From: Eledone cirrhosa
Lineage: Eukaryota
Length of the DNA: 64,000 nucleotides
Reading direction: 5' to 3'
Assembly (NCBI GenBank): GCA_964016885.1
Contig: OZ024740.1
Coordinates: forward strand, 256,494,001 to 256,558,000
A program made the position numbers and the translations under genes. Under the pieces are notes generated by a model, which saw nothing but the letters and a program-made list of their open reading frames with translations, was not told the DNA's origin and ran no database searches. Of the stretch, positions 1,437 through 58,277 are shown in pieces. Within the stretch, counting starts at the first letter, position 1; the number at the start of each line of letters is the position of its first letter.

Positions 1437-1525
1437 CAGGAGAACATGATATGAAGGCTACATATATATATATATATAGATGAGATTCTGCAGGACTAGA
1501 ACTGCTTCAATATTTAGAAATCATC

Positions 1526-1692
1526 GGTAGAGGGTCAGACGCCATGCTTTCCAGCATAGTTACGTCCCTTTACGATCTGAGTTCAAATCCCGCCGAGGTT
1601 GACTTTGCCTTTCATCCTTACGGGGTCGATAAAATAAAGTACCAGTAATGCACTGGGTAATTTTCTGGCCTTGTGCCTAACGTAGAAACAAT
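1526..1692 (+). mobile_element. 5'-truncated SINE with 15-bp target site duplication
   Basis: TATTTAGAAATCATC at 1511-1525 and 1693-1707 flanks the SINE body. Confidence 0.85.
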
Positions 1693-1715
1693 TATTTAGA
1701 AATCATCAGGAATCA

Positions 1716-1768
1716 GAGATTCCTGATGATTTCTAAAGAATGAAACAGTTCTAGTCCTGTAGAATCTC
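1716..1768 (+). ncRNA. Type I hammerhead ribozyme
   Basis: GAGATTC-CTGATGA-TTTCTAAAGAAT-GAAA-CAG(TTCTAGTC)CTG-TA-GAATCTC; GUA cleavage triplet; weak base of stem II. Confidence 0.65.
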
Positions 1769-1988
1769 ATCTATATTAAAACTTTTATACTCTGCAATGT
1801 ATTGAGTACCTTAATAACGAAATAACGTATATATATATATATATATATATATATATATATATATATATATATATATATATATATATATATATATATATAT
1901 ATATATATATATATAAATATATATATATATATATATATATATATACGATATTAAATAAATGGAAACTATATTTATAAAACCATATTTA

Positions 1989-2050
1989 TTTCATTATATA
2001 TATTTCAGGGATATCATATTAAAAATATGGTATGCCTTCATCAGACAAAA
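1989..2050 (-). ncRNA. Type I hammerhead ribozyme in PLE 3' pLTR
   Basis: Minus: TTTTGT-CTGATGA-AGG...CCT-GAAA-TATATA-TA-ATGAAA. Confidence 0.7.
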
Positions 2051-3415
2051 TACAATATAAACAGTCTTATAAATAGATAGATTTGACATACCTTACACTT
2101 CAACTTCCATTTAAAAAGTTGATTTGGTAGTGAAAAATGTTAGGGACAGTTATAGAGAAAAAAAAAGAAAGAAAGAAAGAAAGCGAAGAAAAAGAAGAAA
2201 TGCATGCAACGAAAAACAGAGAGAGATAGATATAGAGAGATAGATAGAGAGAAGAAATTCATGTAAAGAAAAACAGAGAGAGATAGATAGAGAGAGAAAA
2301 AACAGAGGGAGATAGATAGAGAGAGAGAGAGAAAAGAGAGAGAGAGAGAGAAAAAATAGTGAGAGATAGATATAGATAGAGATAGAGAGAGAGAGAAAAA
2401 TAGGTAGTTGGGCACCAGTTGAATGACGTATCAATGATATATTTATTTCTTTATTTCTTTATTTAGTTCTAGTATTAAGGTAGAGAGAGATATATGTGGT
2501 TAGGAGAGAAAACAGCCGTTACATAGAGAGAAAAGAAAAATATCCAGAGATAAACGAGGCAGATTTAAAACATTATGTTTCATCAATCTAAAATATCAAT
2601 TCGTATGAATTAGGTATTATAATGTAAATATCAGTATTCATGAATGAGACACGTATCAATAATGTGTGAAAAATAATGATCATATGTCTAGTTTAAAATT
2701 CCTAGGTTTATAATCAGAACTGAGTTAAAAAACTGAGGTAAAAACTTAAAAAAAAATTGAAATACATAAGTATATATGCACTTTCATGAAAAAAGAAAAA
2801 GAAAATAGATGGTTATCCCAGATTCGATACTATAGACATCCATGTGAATTTACGTGATCAACTCTGCAAATTCCTATTTCACATGAAAACATTCTCATTG
2901 TGCTATAAAAATTCTAGTATACATATATGTGTACATATACACCAATATATATAGAATCTACATTAATTTTAACAATAATATTCTTGTCTTTACTCTACAT
3001 GATTATCGTTCAAGCATAAAATAGACAACAGATATCAATATATCAATAAAAATATTAAAAATATTAAAAAATAAAACACAGTATGCCCCGCAAATCAACC
3101 ACAGAATCTACCCTTCAAATTTAATTGACAATATATTGCCAAGTTCATTATAAGCATCAGAATCAAAAGCATACAAAACCAAAATTATTCACCAAATCCT
3201 GTCTAGCAGAAATCATTCCAAAAGTTTAGGATACCCATTTGATCTACAGATGGTCTTATATTTATTATAGAAGTTTATCTAGTGTAAAATTTATTCGATA
3301 TATTTGGAGCATCATCTTTTAGGGTAGTTTAATTATTCATGAAGAAGGTTTAAAAAAAGAAATCGAAAGATTTATCGGCGAGTTTCATAATAATTACAAA
3401 TCATAAGTAAATATA

Positions 3416-5047
3416 CTACATTTTAAATTTATATTTATATTTAAAAGTTGAGTTCAATCTATGTCTGCAGCAACTGAATAAATTTGTCCGTAAATTAAGG
3501 GAATTTTTAGATTTTAGTATAAAGAATATCTCCTCCGCGCAGAGGTCACATGTCTCAGAGGATGAATTAAAAGGAATCCCTCTTGAGACTATATTCCAAG
3601 CCGTCGAATACCCAACGTTATCATGCTTAAGTTGCCAGAGTAAGCCTGATAGTGATGTTGAAGATTTTTTGCTTGGATCTGTGAAAGAATTCTTGTGGTT
3701 ATTATAGCGAAGTTTAAATTCTGTCGAGGTGGAACCAACATAGTTAAAAGAATTTAAGTCCGTTTTAACATTACAGTTGTATATTATATTTATAACTAAG
3801 CAATTGTTATTTAACGGACATTTAGATATATCTCTACAGTTACATTTGTTTACTTGGATATTATTTAGGCTATTATCGGTATTTTGGCTAGGTTTTAAAT
3901 TCCTATTATTTATTCTATTAATATTTTGTGCTAAATTTTTGGTGGATGAGTAAGTTAATTTTATAGTATGTCTATTGAAAATTGAGTGATACTTATGTGT
4001 TCTAGGGAAGCGATTATCAAGAGCATTAAAAAATAGTTTAGCGATGTGGGTTTTAATGTTTAGTGAGAAAGGGGGGGCAAACCATATTATATTTCTAGTT
4101 CTATTTCTTTTTTGGCTTTTGGAATTATTGAAATGCTTTCTATTATAGTTGTTAAAGTTGTTGCCGTAATTAAAATTGTTGTTATTTTGGTTAGTTTGTC
4201 TATTATTATCTATGTACATAATTTTATCACTATATCCTGCTCTAGCTAACGCTTCATTGTAATACTGGGCTTTTTCGTCGAAAATCTTTTTATTAGATGA
4301 GATTCTAGAGATACGTTTTTGAACAGAGTTCACTATAGTATTTTTAACAGATCTGGGGTGGTTAGAGTTAAAACTGACATAGTTTAAGTTTTCATTCAAC
4401 TTGTGAAATGGATAGTGAAGACATGTGTTGAGATTTAATGTTACATCTAGGAAATTGACTATTCTATGGTTATTCTCAATTTCTATTTTTAGATTAAAGT
4501 AATTAAAAAATTGTGTAATTTGTTTTCTTTTTCTATTTAGTTCAGAGTTATTATTTTCAATAAGTAAAAGCATGTCATCTCTATATAATCCTCCGGTAAC
4601 ACCGGGTATTTTCCTATGCAGCGAATTGATTATAAATAGGCCCACAAGGTCCGTTACCTGAGCTGAGTCGGATGATCCCATAGTAATGTCGAAATTGTTA
4701 TCTCTATTTGCTCTGGTCTATAGTTGGTTATTAAATTCTATCAATGTTTTCCTAGCCGATAATATAATGTGCATTTCATTGCTAGTTAGGTCTGTATGTT
4801 TGAATGCGTAATTTAGTGCCTTATTTAGTAGATTAGGGGTAATAGATGAATAATAGTTAGCAATATCTAGTTGAATAAATTTATTATTATTGTTATATTT
4901 AATTTCTTTAAACCACTCAACAACCTCTCCAGTTCCCTTCCACAAGCTCAAGTTAGGTAAACAATTCAAGTTTTTAATTTGCTGTATCACCCTGTCTAGA
5001 ATGTTTTTGCTAAGTTTACCCGGGTCAGATTTTGATGGTGCAATCAA
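3416..5047 (-). pseudogene. PLE reverse transcriptase + GIY-YIG endonuclease (Naiad-like), one in-frame stop, N-terminus missing
   Basis: ORFs 4718-5047 and 3416-4681 share a frame. Motifs: LDIANYYSSI, MGSSDS, LYRDD, VNFLDVTL, linker CNCRDISKCP, IIYNC...NYVGST...LRYNNH, CDLCAEE. Confidence 0.9.
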
Positions 5048-5288
5048 TCTAACTGGCAGGTCATTTTCACTTGTTGAGTGCTTTTATATCAGTTATAAAT
5101 ATTTACTCGTTGTAACCCAACAATTTAAATAAAACTTTGCATATATATATATATATATATATATATATATATATATATATATATATATATATGTATATAT
5201 ATGTAGGAGGTGAGTTTTATTGTAGTACAATAAAGCAATGCAGATATCGGATAAGAAGCACTCTACAGTTTGTGGGACTGGAGTATGC

Positions 5289-56714: not shown

Positions 56715-56934
56715 AATGGTTTCTTATATAGGCACAAGGCCAGCAATTTTGGGGGAGGGGGAAAGTCGATTATATCGATGCCAGTGCGTGACTGTTACTT
56801 TATTTTATCGACCCCGTAAGAATGAAAGGTAAAGTTAACCTCGGCGGGATTGAACTCAGATCATAAAGGGCCGTAACTCGCTGCTGCAAAGCATAGCATC
56901 GTACCCTCTACCGATACTGCCAATCCACCGCCCT
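56715..56934 (-). mobile_element. SINE
   Basis: Reverse copy of the 1057/63024 family. Confidence 0.8.
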
Positions 56935-57034
56935 ATATCGAATATTCATAATGATATTCGATTCTTTTGCAAGCAAATGGCCCGACAAATCTATGCTGTG
57001 CCTTGGTGACAACTGTTTAACAGTGGCATCGAGG

Positions 57035-57079
57035 AACAATCAACAAGTTTCTGGGTCATTACCCTTCATCGGGACTGTT
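57035..57079 (-). ncRNA. Hammerhead-like motif (family C; CCGAUGA core variant)
   Basis: Minus: AACAGTC-CCGATGA-AGGGT(AATG)ACCCA-GAAA-CTTG-TT-GATTGTT. Confidence 0.5.
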
Positions 57080-57425
57080 TAGCTCTCTGCCACTCTGTTG
57101 AATAGTTGAAAATATATAGTATTTTCTGAACTGGTTAGCCTCATTTGTATACCCAGCGAGTTACGAAAATTAAAAATAAACTTAGCAGAGCAGATACATA
57201 AATGTAAGCATGCATACGTACCATATATATATATATTGTTTTATTTGGGGAGGGTCAAATTGTTGTAATAATATTGCCAGAAATAATAATAGAACACGCT
57301 CACTGTTTGGTTGGTTTTCGCTTCTGTGTCTTTTATATCCCCATAGTTAATTTATCTGGTAATCAATGTTTATCATTGATTGACCAACCGTTAAAAATAC
57401 AGATATAAATTTATATATATAGCCT

Positions 57426-57466
57426 ATCAAAGTTCTTTCGTCACACATCTGTGACATCATCAGTGG
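57426..57466 (-). ncRNA. Hammerhead-like motif (family B); second copy at ~57935-57975
   Basis: Minus: ACCA-CTGATGA-TGTCACA(GATG)TGTGAC-GAAA-GAAC-TT-TGAT; weak stem I. Confidence 0.5.
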
Positions 57467-57722
57467 TACTATTATGTTTCCTCCCGTTGTATTGTAATGG
57501 CTACGCCATTTTCTATTTTATTTATTTATTTAATTCTTGTTTTCTGTCTCTGCGCATGCGTTTGTGTGTGTGTTTCCTGTTTGGTGTGTTTATTTAAATA
57601 TATTTCCCTCAGGTCAGTATTGTTTGTTTAGGTATATATATATATATATATATATATATATATATATATATATATATATATATAATAATAATAATATTAT
57701 ATATATATATATATATATATAT

Positions 57723-58091
57723 ATATTGTTATATTTGGGGAGGGTCATGTTTGCGTAATATTGCCAGAATTAATAACAGAACACACTCACTGTTTGGTTG
57801 GTTTTCGCTTCTCGCTGTCTTTTATATATATATATCTGCGATCTAACTTACTCGGTCCTCAATGTTGCCATTGACTGACCGGCGGTCAAAAATAATACAG
57901 ATACAATATAGACAAACACATATATATATAGTTTACATAAATCTTTCGTTGCACATCTGCAACATCGTCAGTGGTGTTATATTCATTGTTCCTCCTGTTG
58001 TGTTGTATGTCTACGCCATTTTTTTTTGTTCAGTCTGTTATTAATTCTGGCAATATTACGCAAATATGACCCTCCCCAAATATAACAATAT
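57723..58091. repeat. Family B inverted repeat (~58-bp arms) between (TA)n tracts
   Basis: ATATTGTTATATTTGGGGAGGGTCAT...AACAGA mirrored at 58034-58091. Confidence 0.85.
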
Positions 58092-58277
58092 CGGTTTCGA
58101 CACACGATTTCATATAAAAAACCTCGCAAAACTAATTCATCGCCGCTATATATATATATATATATATATATATATATATATATATATATATATATATATA
58201 TATATATATATATATGTATGTATATATTAATAAAAGATGGGAAGCCATATTCAGTTGATTCAGATTTATTTAAAACT

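Follow-up and report, generated by a model that had tools for sequence, protein, structure and literature searches.

How did a single stretch of genome come to hold so many palindromes whose arms face outwards into microsatellites? The question is raised by a 64-kb window of the Eledone cirrhosa genome (contig OZ024740.1; the window is the whole stretch of 64,000 nt analysed here, and positions are counted from its first letter). A sequence-only reading had listed eight ribozyme-bearing inverted repeats in it and attributed all of them, from 100 bp to 18 kb, to one integration mechanism, as used by Penelope-like elements (PLEs). In Arkhipova et al. 2013 (PMC3846280), head-to-head is the commonest PLE arrangement observed. 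Craig et al. 2021 (PMC8557442) describe an inverted 5′-truncated PLE copy, a one-ended tail and (TA)n targeting, and include Hydra-1_Obim, a (TA)n-inserting family of Octopus bimaculoides. According to the available text of Frangieh 2024 (PMC11167929), the protein of the PLE PAc (Poseidon of Anolis) makes nicks in both strands of AT-rich DNA and extends them, and two start sites define the tail; top and bottom strands showed no difference in where synthesis starts.

Results

Our own seed-and-extend inverted-repeat scan of the 64-kb window, with microsatellites masked, together with arm-to-arm alignments recovered the seven small repeats named earlier, and unit mapping recovered the large array; all eight are head-to-head. 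Self-BLAST of the window missed several of the palindromes (6055, 62702). Four further repeats, overlooked in the sequence-only reading, are head-to-head as well (54174-54274, 62702-62948, 63409-63931 and 29794-30038), their polarity being taken from homology or from the tail motif, and weak for 29794-30038. Adjacent repeats in the window are thus head-to-head in 12 of 12 cases, with firm support for polarity in eight, moderate in two and weak in two (E3 and E13; Table 1). Six of the 12 are near-symmetric hairpins (unaligned inner ends ≤22 nt). The proposed outward polarity stands for each insertion; as an absolute rule it does not, since the window also contains two tail-to-tail repeats, each with a microsatellite tract between its arms: 52561-52789/53024-53253 (82% over 220 columns) and 6688-6717/6870-6899 (30/30 bp identical). 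Inverted LINE copies (15247-16149 versus 21354-22238, 70-75%) and inverted SINE copies lying kilobases apart, all without a ribozyme, were set aside as independent insertions.

Table 1. Inverted repeats and associated features of the window.
Feature	Position	Strand or arrangement	Description
E1	1479..1827 (arms 1479-1771; centre ~1716)	head-to-head	left arm (minus) abuts (TA)8, interrupted by SINE at 1526-1707 with ~15-bp duplication
E1 right arm		plus	hammerhead 1723-1761; ~50-nt tail into (TA)59
Broken Hydra-type PLE	1946..5140	minus	5′-truncated; 3′ end into (TA)n; RT remnant, CxCX5C linker, GIY-YIG without CCHH; open frame 3416-4717; hammerhead 2044-1995
Partner arm of this PLE	5659..5897	plus	internally deleted; hammerhead 5818-5847; ends in short (TA)n; 5659-5892 matches the PLE at 88.7% over 62 and 96.6% over 58 columns; older head-to-head pair
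E2	5203..5628	hairpin	perfect 167-bp arms; 170/170 columns identical (5292-5625), zero spacer; hammerheads 5389-5335 (minus), 5528-5582 (plus); left arm with ~86-nt tail; right arm passing directly into (TA)n
E3	6055..6718 (arms 6055-6676)	head-to-head	95.9%; degenerate hammerhead-like core; 36-nt tail on right arm
30-bp repeat	6688..6899	tail-to-tail	E3 tail and inverted copy flanking (TA)n tract with repeated 6-nt tail ends
E4 left arm	17755-18352	minus	short, tail-bearing; hammerhead 17948-17910
E4 junction SINE	18351-18503	minus	3′-truncated; missing from right arm
E4 right arm	to 20978	plus	long, tail-less; Hydra-type GIY-YIG fragment 18576-19079; hammerhead 20884-20922; arms 17854-18352/20480-20978 99.8%
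E13	29783..30092	head-to-head	87% over 39 columns; left arm long, tail-less; right arm short, tail-bearing; polarity weak
Array left arm	33947..38011	minus	8.7 copies of 467-bp hammerhead unit; short end (unit position 105) in (TA)44
Array right arm	38012..51728	plus	29.4 copies; long end (unit position 173) in (TA)15
E6	52470..52792		left arm short, tail-less, full hammerhead lacking; ~92-nt tail and hammerhead 52592-52642 on right arm; arms (52470-52694) 100% over 69 columns
E7	53022..53442	near-symmetric hairpin	hammerheads 53219-53170 (minus), 53339-53388 (plus); tail on left arm; arms (53116-53442) 96.3%; tail-to-tail with E6 across 52792-53020 microsatellite tract
E8	54144..54274	head-to-head	E1 family; without hammerhead core; left arm ~31 nt further out
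E9	57727..58147		left arm (minus) long, tail-less, hammerhead core at 57971; right arm 54 bp, ~55-nt tail; arms (57727-58087) 98.3%; family of the non-Hydra PLE end at 23768
E10	62702..63015	head-to-head hairpin	93.9%; left end at (AG)15(TA)37; right tail with Hydra-type motif
E11	63409..64000	head-to-head	87.5% over 56 columns; left end at (AT)14; right tail with Hydra-type motif, reaching window end

Each arm was said to carry the hammerhead or the 3′-end sense; we found an intact hammerhead on both arms in four of the eight named repeats (5289, 17755, 53112 and the array) and not in the other four. The 1478 repeat has an intact hammerhead on the right arm and a SINE-split one on the left, and the 52467 repeat has one on the right arm alone. 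In the 57723 repeat a core that did not pass the strict motif scan is present on the left arm alone, and polarity was read from this core and from homology to the ORF-bearing copy at 23768. The 6055 repeat, whose polarity is the weakest among the eight, has a canonical core on neither arm. By motif scan and Rfam, type I (minimal) hammerheads are present in E1, E2, E4, E6, E7 and the array; E9 has the core only, and the ribozyme is degenerate or absent in E3, E8, E10, E11 and E13. A relaxed hammerhead scan did not recover the cores of E3, E9, E10, E11 and E13. The families had been described as unrelated, and there are indeed five lineages among the eight repeats; however, 17755, 52467 and 53112 resemble one another at 77-86%, with 5289 as a weak relative (z 8.9).

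The predicted proximity to (TA)n was borne out. With a TA tract defined as (TA)≥4 and a distance cut-off of 5 nt from an outer end, seven of the eight named repeats adjoin a tract, against 4.1% expected (P = 1.6e-9), as do 9/12 in the window overall (4.1% expected, P = 7e-11). Hammerheads in the window are nearer to a TA tract on their 3′ side in 13 of 15 cases, and among 59 hammerheads in a second animal's DNA (G001) TA lies downstream of 19 and upstream of 3. Both flanks of the insertions are microsatellite, and the ends of target-site duplications are not readable inside them.

In G001, unfiltered pairs are head-to-head in 15 cases and tail-to-tail in 9 (P = 0.31); pairs at least 95% identical, a cut picked after the data had been seen, number 9 and 2, respectively (P = 0.065). 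Of the 59 hammerhead matches, two are on very long contigs (C745, C746), possibly of bacterial origin, and neither has an inverted partner. Separate insertions into a common TA tract yield tail-to-tail pairs, and a combined einverted and hammerhead scan would therefore be blurred. The rule thus applies to each insertion rather than to each inverted repeat.

The translations of 3416-4717 and 18576-19079 contain the CxCX5C linker and have no CCHH in the endonuclease, which is the definition of the Hydra clade (Craig et al. 2021, PMC8557442). Translation 3416-4717 also has CxxC and CxH flanking a conserved E and N; in A2, C390, C393, E396, N408, C417 and H419 are near-invariant. RWK and DKT motifs occur in full-length (~700-aa) relatives, and the N-terminus is missing from the window fragments. 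A linked RT/GIY-YIG ORF is found in the 1946-5140 element; E4 has a GIY-YIG fragment only (Pfam E 0.007, below the cut-off), and the other repeats are non-coding. The Pfam profile search did not recognise the Hydra RT, and no match was obtained in metagenomes searched with a single protein or in viral contigs searched by alignment. As judged by motifs, the protein fragments of the window match Hydra-clade PLEs. E3, E9 and the array likely depend on other clades; at least two or three PLE clades seem to be involved. The idea of one mechanism for all sizes thus remains plausible for one class of mechanism rather than for one enzyme, because the families are only partly related and more than one clade seemingly takes part.

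Exactly one arm has a longer end in 12 of 12 window repeats (2.4e-4 under independent 50:50 end choice). The two arms end at different, fixed points, with tails of ~31-95 nt. The same was seen in six of seven Hydra-type pairs with readable tails in other animals' DNA (L002, L122, L123, L126b, L162 and L171); in the G001 pair L126 (2655/6345), both arms stop at the short end. In E4, E9 and E13 the tail-bearing arm is the shorter one, the tail-less arm being longer by 2119, 245 and 188 nt, respectively, and L162 and L171 behave likewise; neither arm is therefore a full copy of the other. Hydra-type tails share a short paired motif, RCTC...GAGYRCT, which is absent from E3, E9 and the array. A G-C pair in it is swapped for A-U between lineages, as a single lineage-level change. 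Folding of ten tail plus hammerhead segments gave mixed stability (z +0.8 to -2.9); folding energy by itself does not support the tail hairpin. The pattern of one longer end likely reflects one RNA copied twice in a single insertion.

The unit of the 18-kb array (467 bp, GC ~0.355) has no ORF of 150 aa and carries a hammerhead match in 38 units (Rfam HH9, 9 minus and 29 plus; 37.7 bits, one 29.1, all below the gathering score of 52). Only 1 substitution and 4 single-base indels were found across 37 full units. At unit position 375 both arms have G, whereas the contigs of run X1 show A for 379,583 of a depth of 381,216; the variant is "rare" only relative to X1, which may be another individual, and may be common in this genome. 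The array junction has an imperfect 6-nt microhomology, and the two ends of the array are situated 233 and 301 nt beyond the hammerhead cut site. Both ends recur at other loci, as X1 (TA)n loose ends behind 38116 (at least 4 contigs) and 38185 (at least 12 contigs) among the best 12 of 49 loose-end entries. No strand-changing joint was present among the matches listed for X1 (contigs only, 2% share filter). A search for RNA data sets containing the array unit listed none. By its sequence, the array looks like a non-LTR retrozyme. Viral contigs searched by the array hammerhead pattern gave no match. Apart from the array hammerhead, Rfam gave only many microRNA-family matches to TA repeats and hairpins; all were below the gathering score and were rejected.

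Discussion

The proposed origin in PLE insertion with an inverted 5′ copy proved right, the traits matching those in Arkhipova et al. 2013 and Craig et al. 2021. We put at about one half the probability that the repeats are insertions of PLEs (mostly Hydra-type) and of their non-coding hammerhead derivatives into (TA)n, each made in one event with both strands priming on the same RNA. As (TA)n is the same on both strands, both nicks would be equivalent primers. Of the two primers, one would begin copying from the tail end of the same RNA and its counterpart from the short end; each cDNA would extend 5′-ward for its own length, and joining of the two cDNA ends would leave the 3′ ends outward. 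A circular or multimeric retrozyme RNA could by the same route give the array of 8.7 + 29.4 units, and two separate insertions in one TA tract could give the tail-to-tail pairs. The arms are more alike than other copies of their family (E2, 100% versus 97.6%; E4/E6/E7, 96-100% versus 77-86%). Against two-strand priming, the six near-symmetric hairpins require a common RNA end as the stopping point of the two cDNAs, identical arms may also be the product of one arm having later corrected the other, unequal arms may result from deletions that later struck the centre of a palindrome, and strand-specific site use has no support in the available text of Frangieh 2024. We suggest more tentatively a coupled form of double priming on one RNA, in which the strands would always start at opposite flanks of the conserved tail hairpin, every complete insertion would be a one-tailed palindrome, and a retrozyme circle would become the 18-kb array in one step.

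Near-symmetric hairpins, E2 without a spacer among them, and near-identical arms are also what is expected if the first cDNA (or an antisense template, as already published in Arkhipova et al. 2013) folds back and is recopied, the second arm being trimmed at the short end and inequality resulting from later deletions. The microhomology at the array junction fits such self-priming too, as do E6 and the array in that their longer arm bears the tail. However, in the five repeats with a short tail-bearing arm each arm holds sequence that the other lacks, the E4 left arm runs into a SINE missing on the right arm, and L012 shows inverted ORF parts without overlap. One longer end, shorter tail-bearing arms, the shared array variant and the tail motif favour two-strand priming over simple fold-back, which we regard as unlikely.

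Still more doubtful is twin priming on two separate RNAs, each protein subunit using its own, followed by homogenisation of the arms through palindrome correction. It accounts for arms unequal either way, for the low arm identity of E11 and E13 (87%), and accords with the protein dimer predicted in the available text of Frangieh 2024; however, by itself it gives no reason for one longer end in 12/12, it requires matched RNA ends for symmetric hairpins, and both array arms share one haplotype, rare in X1, over 37 full units. Finally, although (TA)n is self-complementary, the array is almost without differences, and the 30-bp tail copy that lies inverted at 6870-6899, like an inverted flank duplication at L126, resembles such events, an origin after insertion and unrelated to integration, by repair or replication template-switching at fragile (TA)n or partly in the assembler, is very improbable, as it expects the end to be copied with the arm and the palindrome to be centred on the TA tract (tail-to-tail), whereas the 12 repeats are centred inside the element, head-to-head, with two different element-defined ends recurring at other loci, and the same anatomy is found in independent assemblies.

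In twin priming of L1, two primers come from opposite target strands and a head-to-head junction results. L1 inversions usually comprise non-overlapping parts of one RNA, whereas both arms here repeat the same 3′ end, as would follow from two start sites 30-100 nt apart.

With the published EN+ PLE architecture (Arkhipova 2013; Craig 2021) our repeats have in common the inverted 5′-truncated copy, junction palindromes, one-ended tail, pLTR hammerhead and (TA)n bias, and the polarity rule itself is already in print. Published tails, however, are 30-40 nt long, and several here are longer; the one-tail pattern, elsewhere called optional, is counted here, and the majority of copies are stubs without coding sequence. 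What is new is that in nearly every case each arm has a fixed end point of its own, different from that of the other arm; the open-access literature covered yielded no statement of one-tail asymmetry, single-RNA twin priming or a PLE tail motif. Likeness to the Hydra clade (Craig 2021) extends to CxCX5C, the lack of CCHH, CxxC/CxH, a canonical hammerhead, the (TA)n target and ~700-aa relatives with RWK/DKT, but the window holds only broken 5′-truncated fragments. PAc, in the available text of Frangieh 2024, is alike in its AT-rich target, its use of both strands, its two internal start sites and in that the hammerhead cut site is not the priming point, as the array ends illustrate; it belongs, however, to another clade, and that text gives no account of an inverted arm or one-tail asymmetry.

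Animal non-LTR retrozymes, as described in the available text of Cervera & de la Pena 2020 (PMC7229834) and Li et al. 2026 (10.64898/2026.07.22.740005), likewise are low-GC, non-coding tandem units with a type I hammerhead, in tens of units, and are proposed to be non-autonomous PLE derivatives. Our unit is slightly above their range of 150-450 bp, and the array shows every mark of PLE insertion (a multimeric arm in inverted orientation, two defined ends and a TA target), a combination that we did not find described for retrozymes in the same text. Its structure thereby ties a retrozyme-like array directly to the PLE machinery.

The claim that such insertions seed the genome with palindromes is shown for this 64-kb window only. 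For the integration step of PLEs the window offers countable signatures by which fold-back can be told from double priming: a single longer end in each insertion, the choice of the shorter arm, a common haplotype of the array arms and a common tail motif. In genomes of this kind, repeat annotation may mistake the palindromes for MITEs or microRNA hairpins.

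Results

The window is AT-rich animal DNA with many microsatellites and retroelements. A seed-and-extend scan with microsatellites masked, followed by unmasked arm alignments, recovered all seven small inverted repeats named by the sequence-only reading and four extra ones (Table). As that reading had claimed, the named repeats, eight with the retrozyme-like array, have outward polarity: all are head-to-head (5′ ends joined, 3′ ends outward), as are 12 of 12 once the extra four are included. A hammerhead on both arms, however, was found in only four of the named repeats, the others having one intact arm, a core or degenerate motifs. 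Nor are the families as unrelated as had been supposed, E4, E6 and E7 being 77–86% alike; an alignment spanning the hammerhead also joins E2 with ends of Penelope-like elements (PLEs) at 1946, 5888, 23657 and 58331. The polarity rule survives as a predominance of 12:2 in the window, with two tail-to-tail repeats (the converse arrangement) as exceptions. A microsatellite tract separates the arms of both exceptions, as expected if two insertions share one target.

Inverted repeats and PLE-derived ends in the window
Feature	Position	Type	Orientation or strand	Basis or remark
E1	from 1478	named repeat	head-to-head	hammerhead intact on one arm; left core split by SINE
E2	from 5289	named repeat	head-to-head	hammerhead motif, both arms
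E3	from 6055	named repeat	head-to-head	degenerate motifs only
E4	from 17755	named repeat	head-to-head	hammerhead motif, both arms
E6	from 52467	named repeat	head-to-head	hammerhead intact on one arm
E7	from 53112	named repeat	head-to-head	hammerhead motif, both arms
E8	54174-54274	extra repeat	head-to-head	homology to E1
E9	from 57723	named repeat	head-to-head	hammerhead core; homology to ORF-bearing end
E10	62702-62948	extra repeat	head-to-head	tail motif
E11	63409-63931	extra repeat	head-to-head	tail motif
E13	29794-30038	extra repeat	head-to-head	degenerate motifs only
Array	33947-51728	named repeat	head-to-head	hammerhead motif, both arms
E6 right arm, E7 left arm		inverted repeat	tail-to-tail	82% over 220 columns
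E3 tail, 30-bp inverted copy		inverted repeat	tail-to-tail	
E9 family	643-1060, 23768-24460, 30117-30400, 51759-51960, 57237-57632	solo 3′ ends	minus	end in (TA)n
Hammerhead-bearing end	58228-58350	solo end	minus	runs into (TA)40
Thumb-endonuclease fragment	58643-59278	separate PLE fragment	plus	CxxC within GIY-YIG core

The claimed proximity to (TA)n was borne out: 9 of the 12 repeats (7 of the 8 named) have an outer end no more than 5 nt away from a (TA)≥4 tract, against 4.1% expected. Masking could pull arm ends toward such tracts; the ends were unchanged in the unmasked alignments, which stop at the same points because the partner arm continues in non-repeat sequence. For 13 of the 15 hammerheads in the window, the TA tract is closer on the downstream than on the upstream side.

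All 11 small repeats share an asymmetry: in the arm alignments one arm runs straight into a microsatellite, while the other extends some 31–95 nt further (the tail). The tail of E10 ends at a SINE and that of E11 at the end of the window; in E8 both arms run beyond the usual short end, one about 31 nt further than the other. The same pattern appears in six of seven readable pairs at other loci, the exception having two short ends. The tail sits on the shorter arm in E4, E9, E13 and two loci outside the window (L162, L171) and on the longer one in E6 and in the array; six repeats are near-symmetric. The arms of a repeat resemble each other more than they resemble other copies.

Several local structures accompany these repeats. 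An older head-to-head pair of Hydra PLEs occupies 1946-5897, its centre later entered by a TA tract and the E2 hairpin. Behind E3, the (TA)n tract (6719-6905) holds the last 6 nt of the tail several times over, in inverted sense, and then the 30-bp inverted tail copy, for which slippage and repeated abortive priming are candidate readings. The right arm of E8 (54226-54274), alone among the arms, starts close to where the hammerhead of its family is predicted to cut (compare 1761).

The array consists of a 467-bp unit in 8.7 copies on the minus and 29.4 on the plus strand, with 9 and 29 Rfam HH9 matches, respectively, all under the gathering score, and it fits the description of non-LTR retrozymes in the available text of PMC7229834 and a 2026 preprint. 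Across its 37 full units, differences amount to one substitution and four single-base indels; the ends of its arms are offset by 68–69 nt. Both arms carry G where 99.6% of the depth in X1, a sequencing run rich in the unit and possibly from another individual, is A. Among the 12 of 49 loose-end entries listed for X1 contigs on one unit, (TA)n loose ends lie behind 38116 (at least 4 contigs) and 38185 (at least 12), which are the two ends of the array arms (unit positions 105 and 173); their flanks differ from those of the window. The unit (38012-38478) occurs in 20 runs from 17 studies, labelled with 16 organisms and a wastewater metagenome; in runs X4, X5 and X6 its identity is about 99% and its depth 10–430, versus 10^5 in X1. 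The most economical explanation is trace contamination from a repeat of very high copy number, with related species or horizontal transfer as possible alternatives.

The tails of E1, E2, E4, E6, E8, E10 and E11 contain the motif RCTC-N(4-40)-GAGYRCY, and that of E7 nearly does; among the window tails it is absent from E3, E9, E13 and the array. Of 43 regions downstream of the hammerhead at other loci, 14 contain it, where shuffled sequences predict 0.2. The motif was first spotted by eye, in the window tails and at six loci elsewhere; 11 of these 14 matches come from loci not viewed beforehand. The base of a putative stem is G-C in other animals and A-U in the window, though two of the 14 matches begin at an outer A yet contain the inner G form; folding energies alone give no support for this stem.

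Two frames, 3416-4717 (minus) and 18576-19079 (plus, within E4), have a CxCX5C linker and lack CCHH; in the first, the catalytic E and N are in addition flanked by CxxC and CxH. The PLE frame has its best named protein match in Octopus bimaculoides (43%). Many of the 64 relatives are about 700 aa long, and RWK and DKT are present in the alignment of these. The available text of Craig et al. 2021 (PMC8557442) treats CxCX5C without CCHH, CxxC/CxH, RWK and DKT as diagnostic of the Hydra clade, and its supplement includes the (TA)n-inserting Hydra-1_Obim; judged by sequence motifs, the two frames bear marks of this clade. The E9 family is linked to a different endonuclease fragment (~24000-24460); some of its five solo ends have the tail, others lack it, and one bears a GIY-YIG-like frame of a non-Hydra PLE. 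Other transposon remains (9180-11200, 12139-14650, 15100-16150, 21060-22330 and 25200-27200) comprise one LINE that has an RT and a zinc finger, other fragments of LINEs, and a DNA transposon flanked by terminal inverted repeats whose transposase is broken. The inversion junction of E4 coincides exactly with a SINE (18351-18503) in left-arm sense, without its 3′ end or visible duplication, which may reflect a template switch from PLE to SINE RNA during left-arm synthesis. The tRNA-derived SINE of the window resembles octopus SINEs, which together with the best protein match makes an octopus the likely source of this DNA.

In DNA of other animals, 18 of 91 Hydra-bearing loci contain an inverted repeat. 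Among these 18, abutting ORFs switch strand head-to-head in L012, L039, L067, L079, L080, L084 (twice), L085, L086 and L087, and tail-to-tail with TA between in L015 and L084, a tally that is not unbiased, since ORFs placed tail-to-tail always have a 3′ UTR between them. In L012 (427-650), a Hydra ORF has a non-overlapping internal inversion (residues 62-105 minus, 122 onward plus), matching the known pattern of L1 twin priming.

A 12-Mb record (G001), which seems to hold host-animal contigs, gave 59 hammerhead matches in a motif scan versus 2 in the control. We checked all 59 for an inverted partner within 5 kb and counted distinct events by hand: the ratio of head-to-head to tail-to-tail was 15 to 9 (P 0.31). 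With a minimum identity of 95%, set after the data had been seen, it became 9 to 2, and both of these tail-to-tail pairs have (TA)n in the spacer. Within 130 nt, a TA-type tract follows 19 hammerheads and precedes 3. The polarity bias is thus a property of the single insertion, and simply counting all pairs dilutes it. G001 (L122-L178), L079, L082, L083 and L088 are filed as bacterial, yet contain Hydra PLEs of animal type together with hammerheads and TA microsatellites, a sign that host DNA entered those assemblies.

Discussion

That the repeats are PLE-type insertions is highly probable, and much surer than any choice of route. We favour, at a probability of about 0.5, double priming of one RNA at both target strands. 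The PLE complex would nick both strands of a self-complementary TA target, and a single RNA would be primed by both nicks, each using one of the two start sites; the resulting cDNAs would extend for independent lengths or up to the RNA end, and joining of their ends would leave the 3′ ends outward and a single tail. Fold-back, the next candidate, would suit the symmetric hairpins but seems unlikely, since short tail-bearing arms fit it only if later deletions are invoked. An origin from two RNAs is more doubtful still, as it leaves both the strict asymmetry and the haplotype shared by the array arms unexplained. Rearrangement after insertion, or an error of assembly, would give a centre and polarity other than those seen and is very improbable.

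Much of this anatomy has precedent. The available text of Arkhipova et al. 2013 (PMC3846280) describes adjacent inverted pLTRs with junction palindromes, an optional 31-bp tail on one inverted pLTR, and head-to-head as the commonest arrangement; that of Craig et al. 2021 (PMC8557442) gives the same PLE anatomy with a (TA)n bias. Dual minimal hammerheads on opposite strands, 100–700 bp apart, appear in that of Cervera and de la Pena 2014, while that of Frangieh et al. 2024 (PMC11167929) reports nicking and extension of both strands, cleavage of AT-rich DNA and a tail bounded by two internal start sites. The polarity rule of the sequence-only reading was thus already published, and the repeats of the window are real, ordinary PLE and retrozyme insertion anatomy. 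We found no prior statement of three features in the open literature searched, which took in parts of the supplements, and these are the modest additions made here: a countable one-tail asymmetry, a two-armed retrozyme array and a tail motif.
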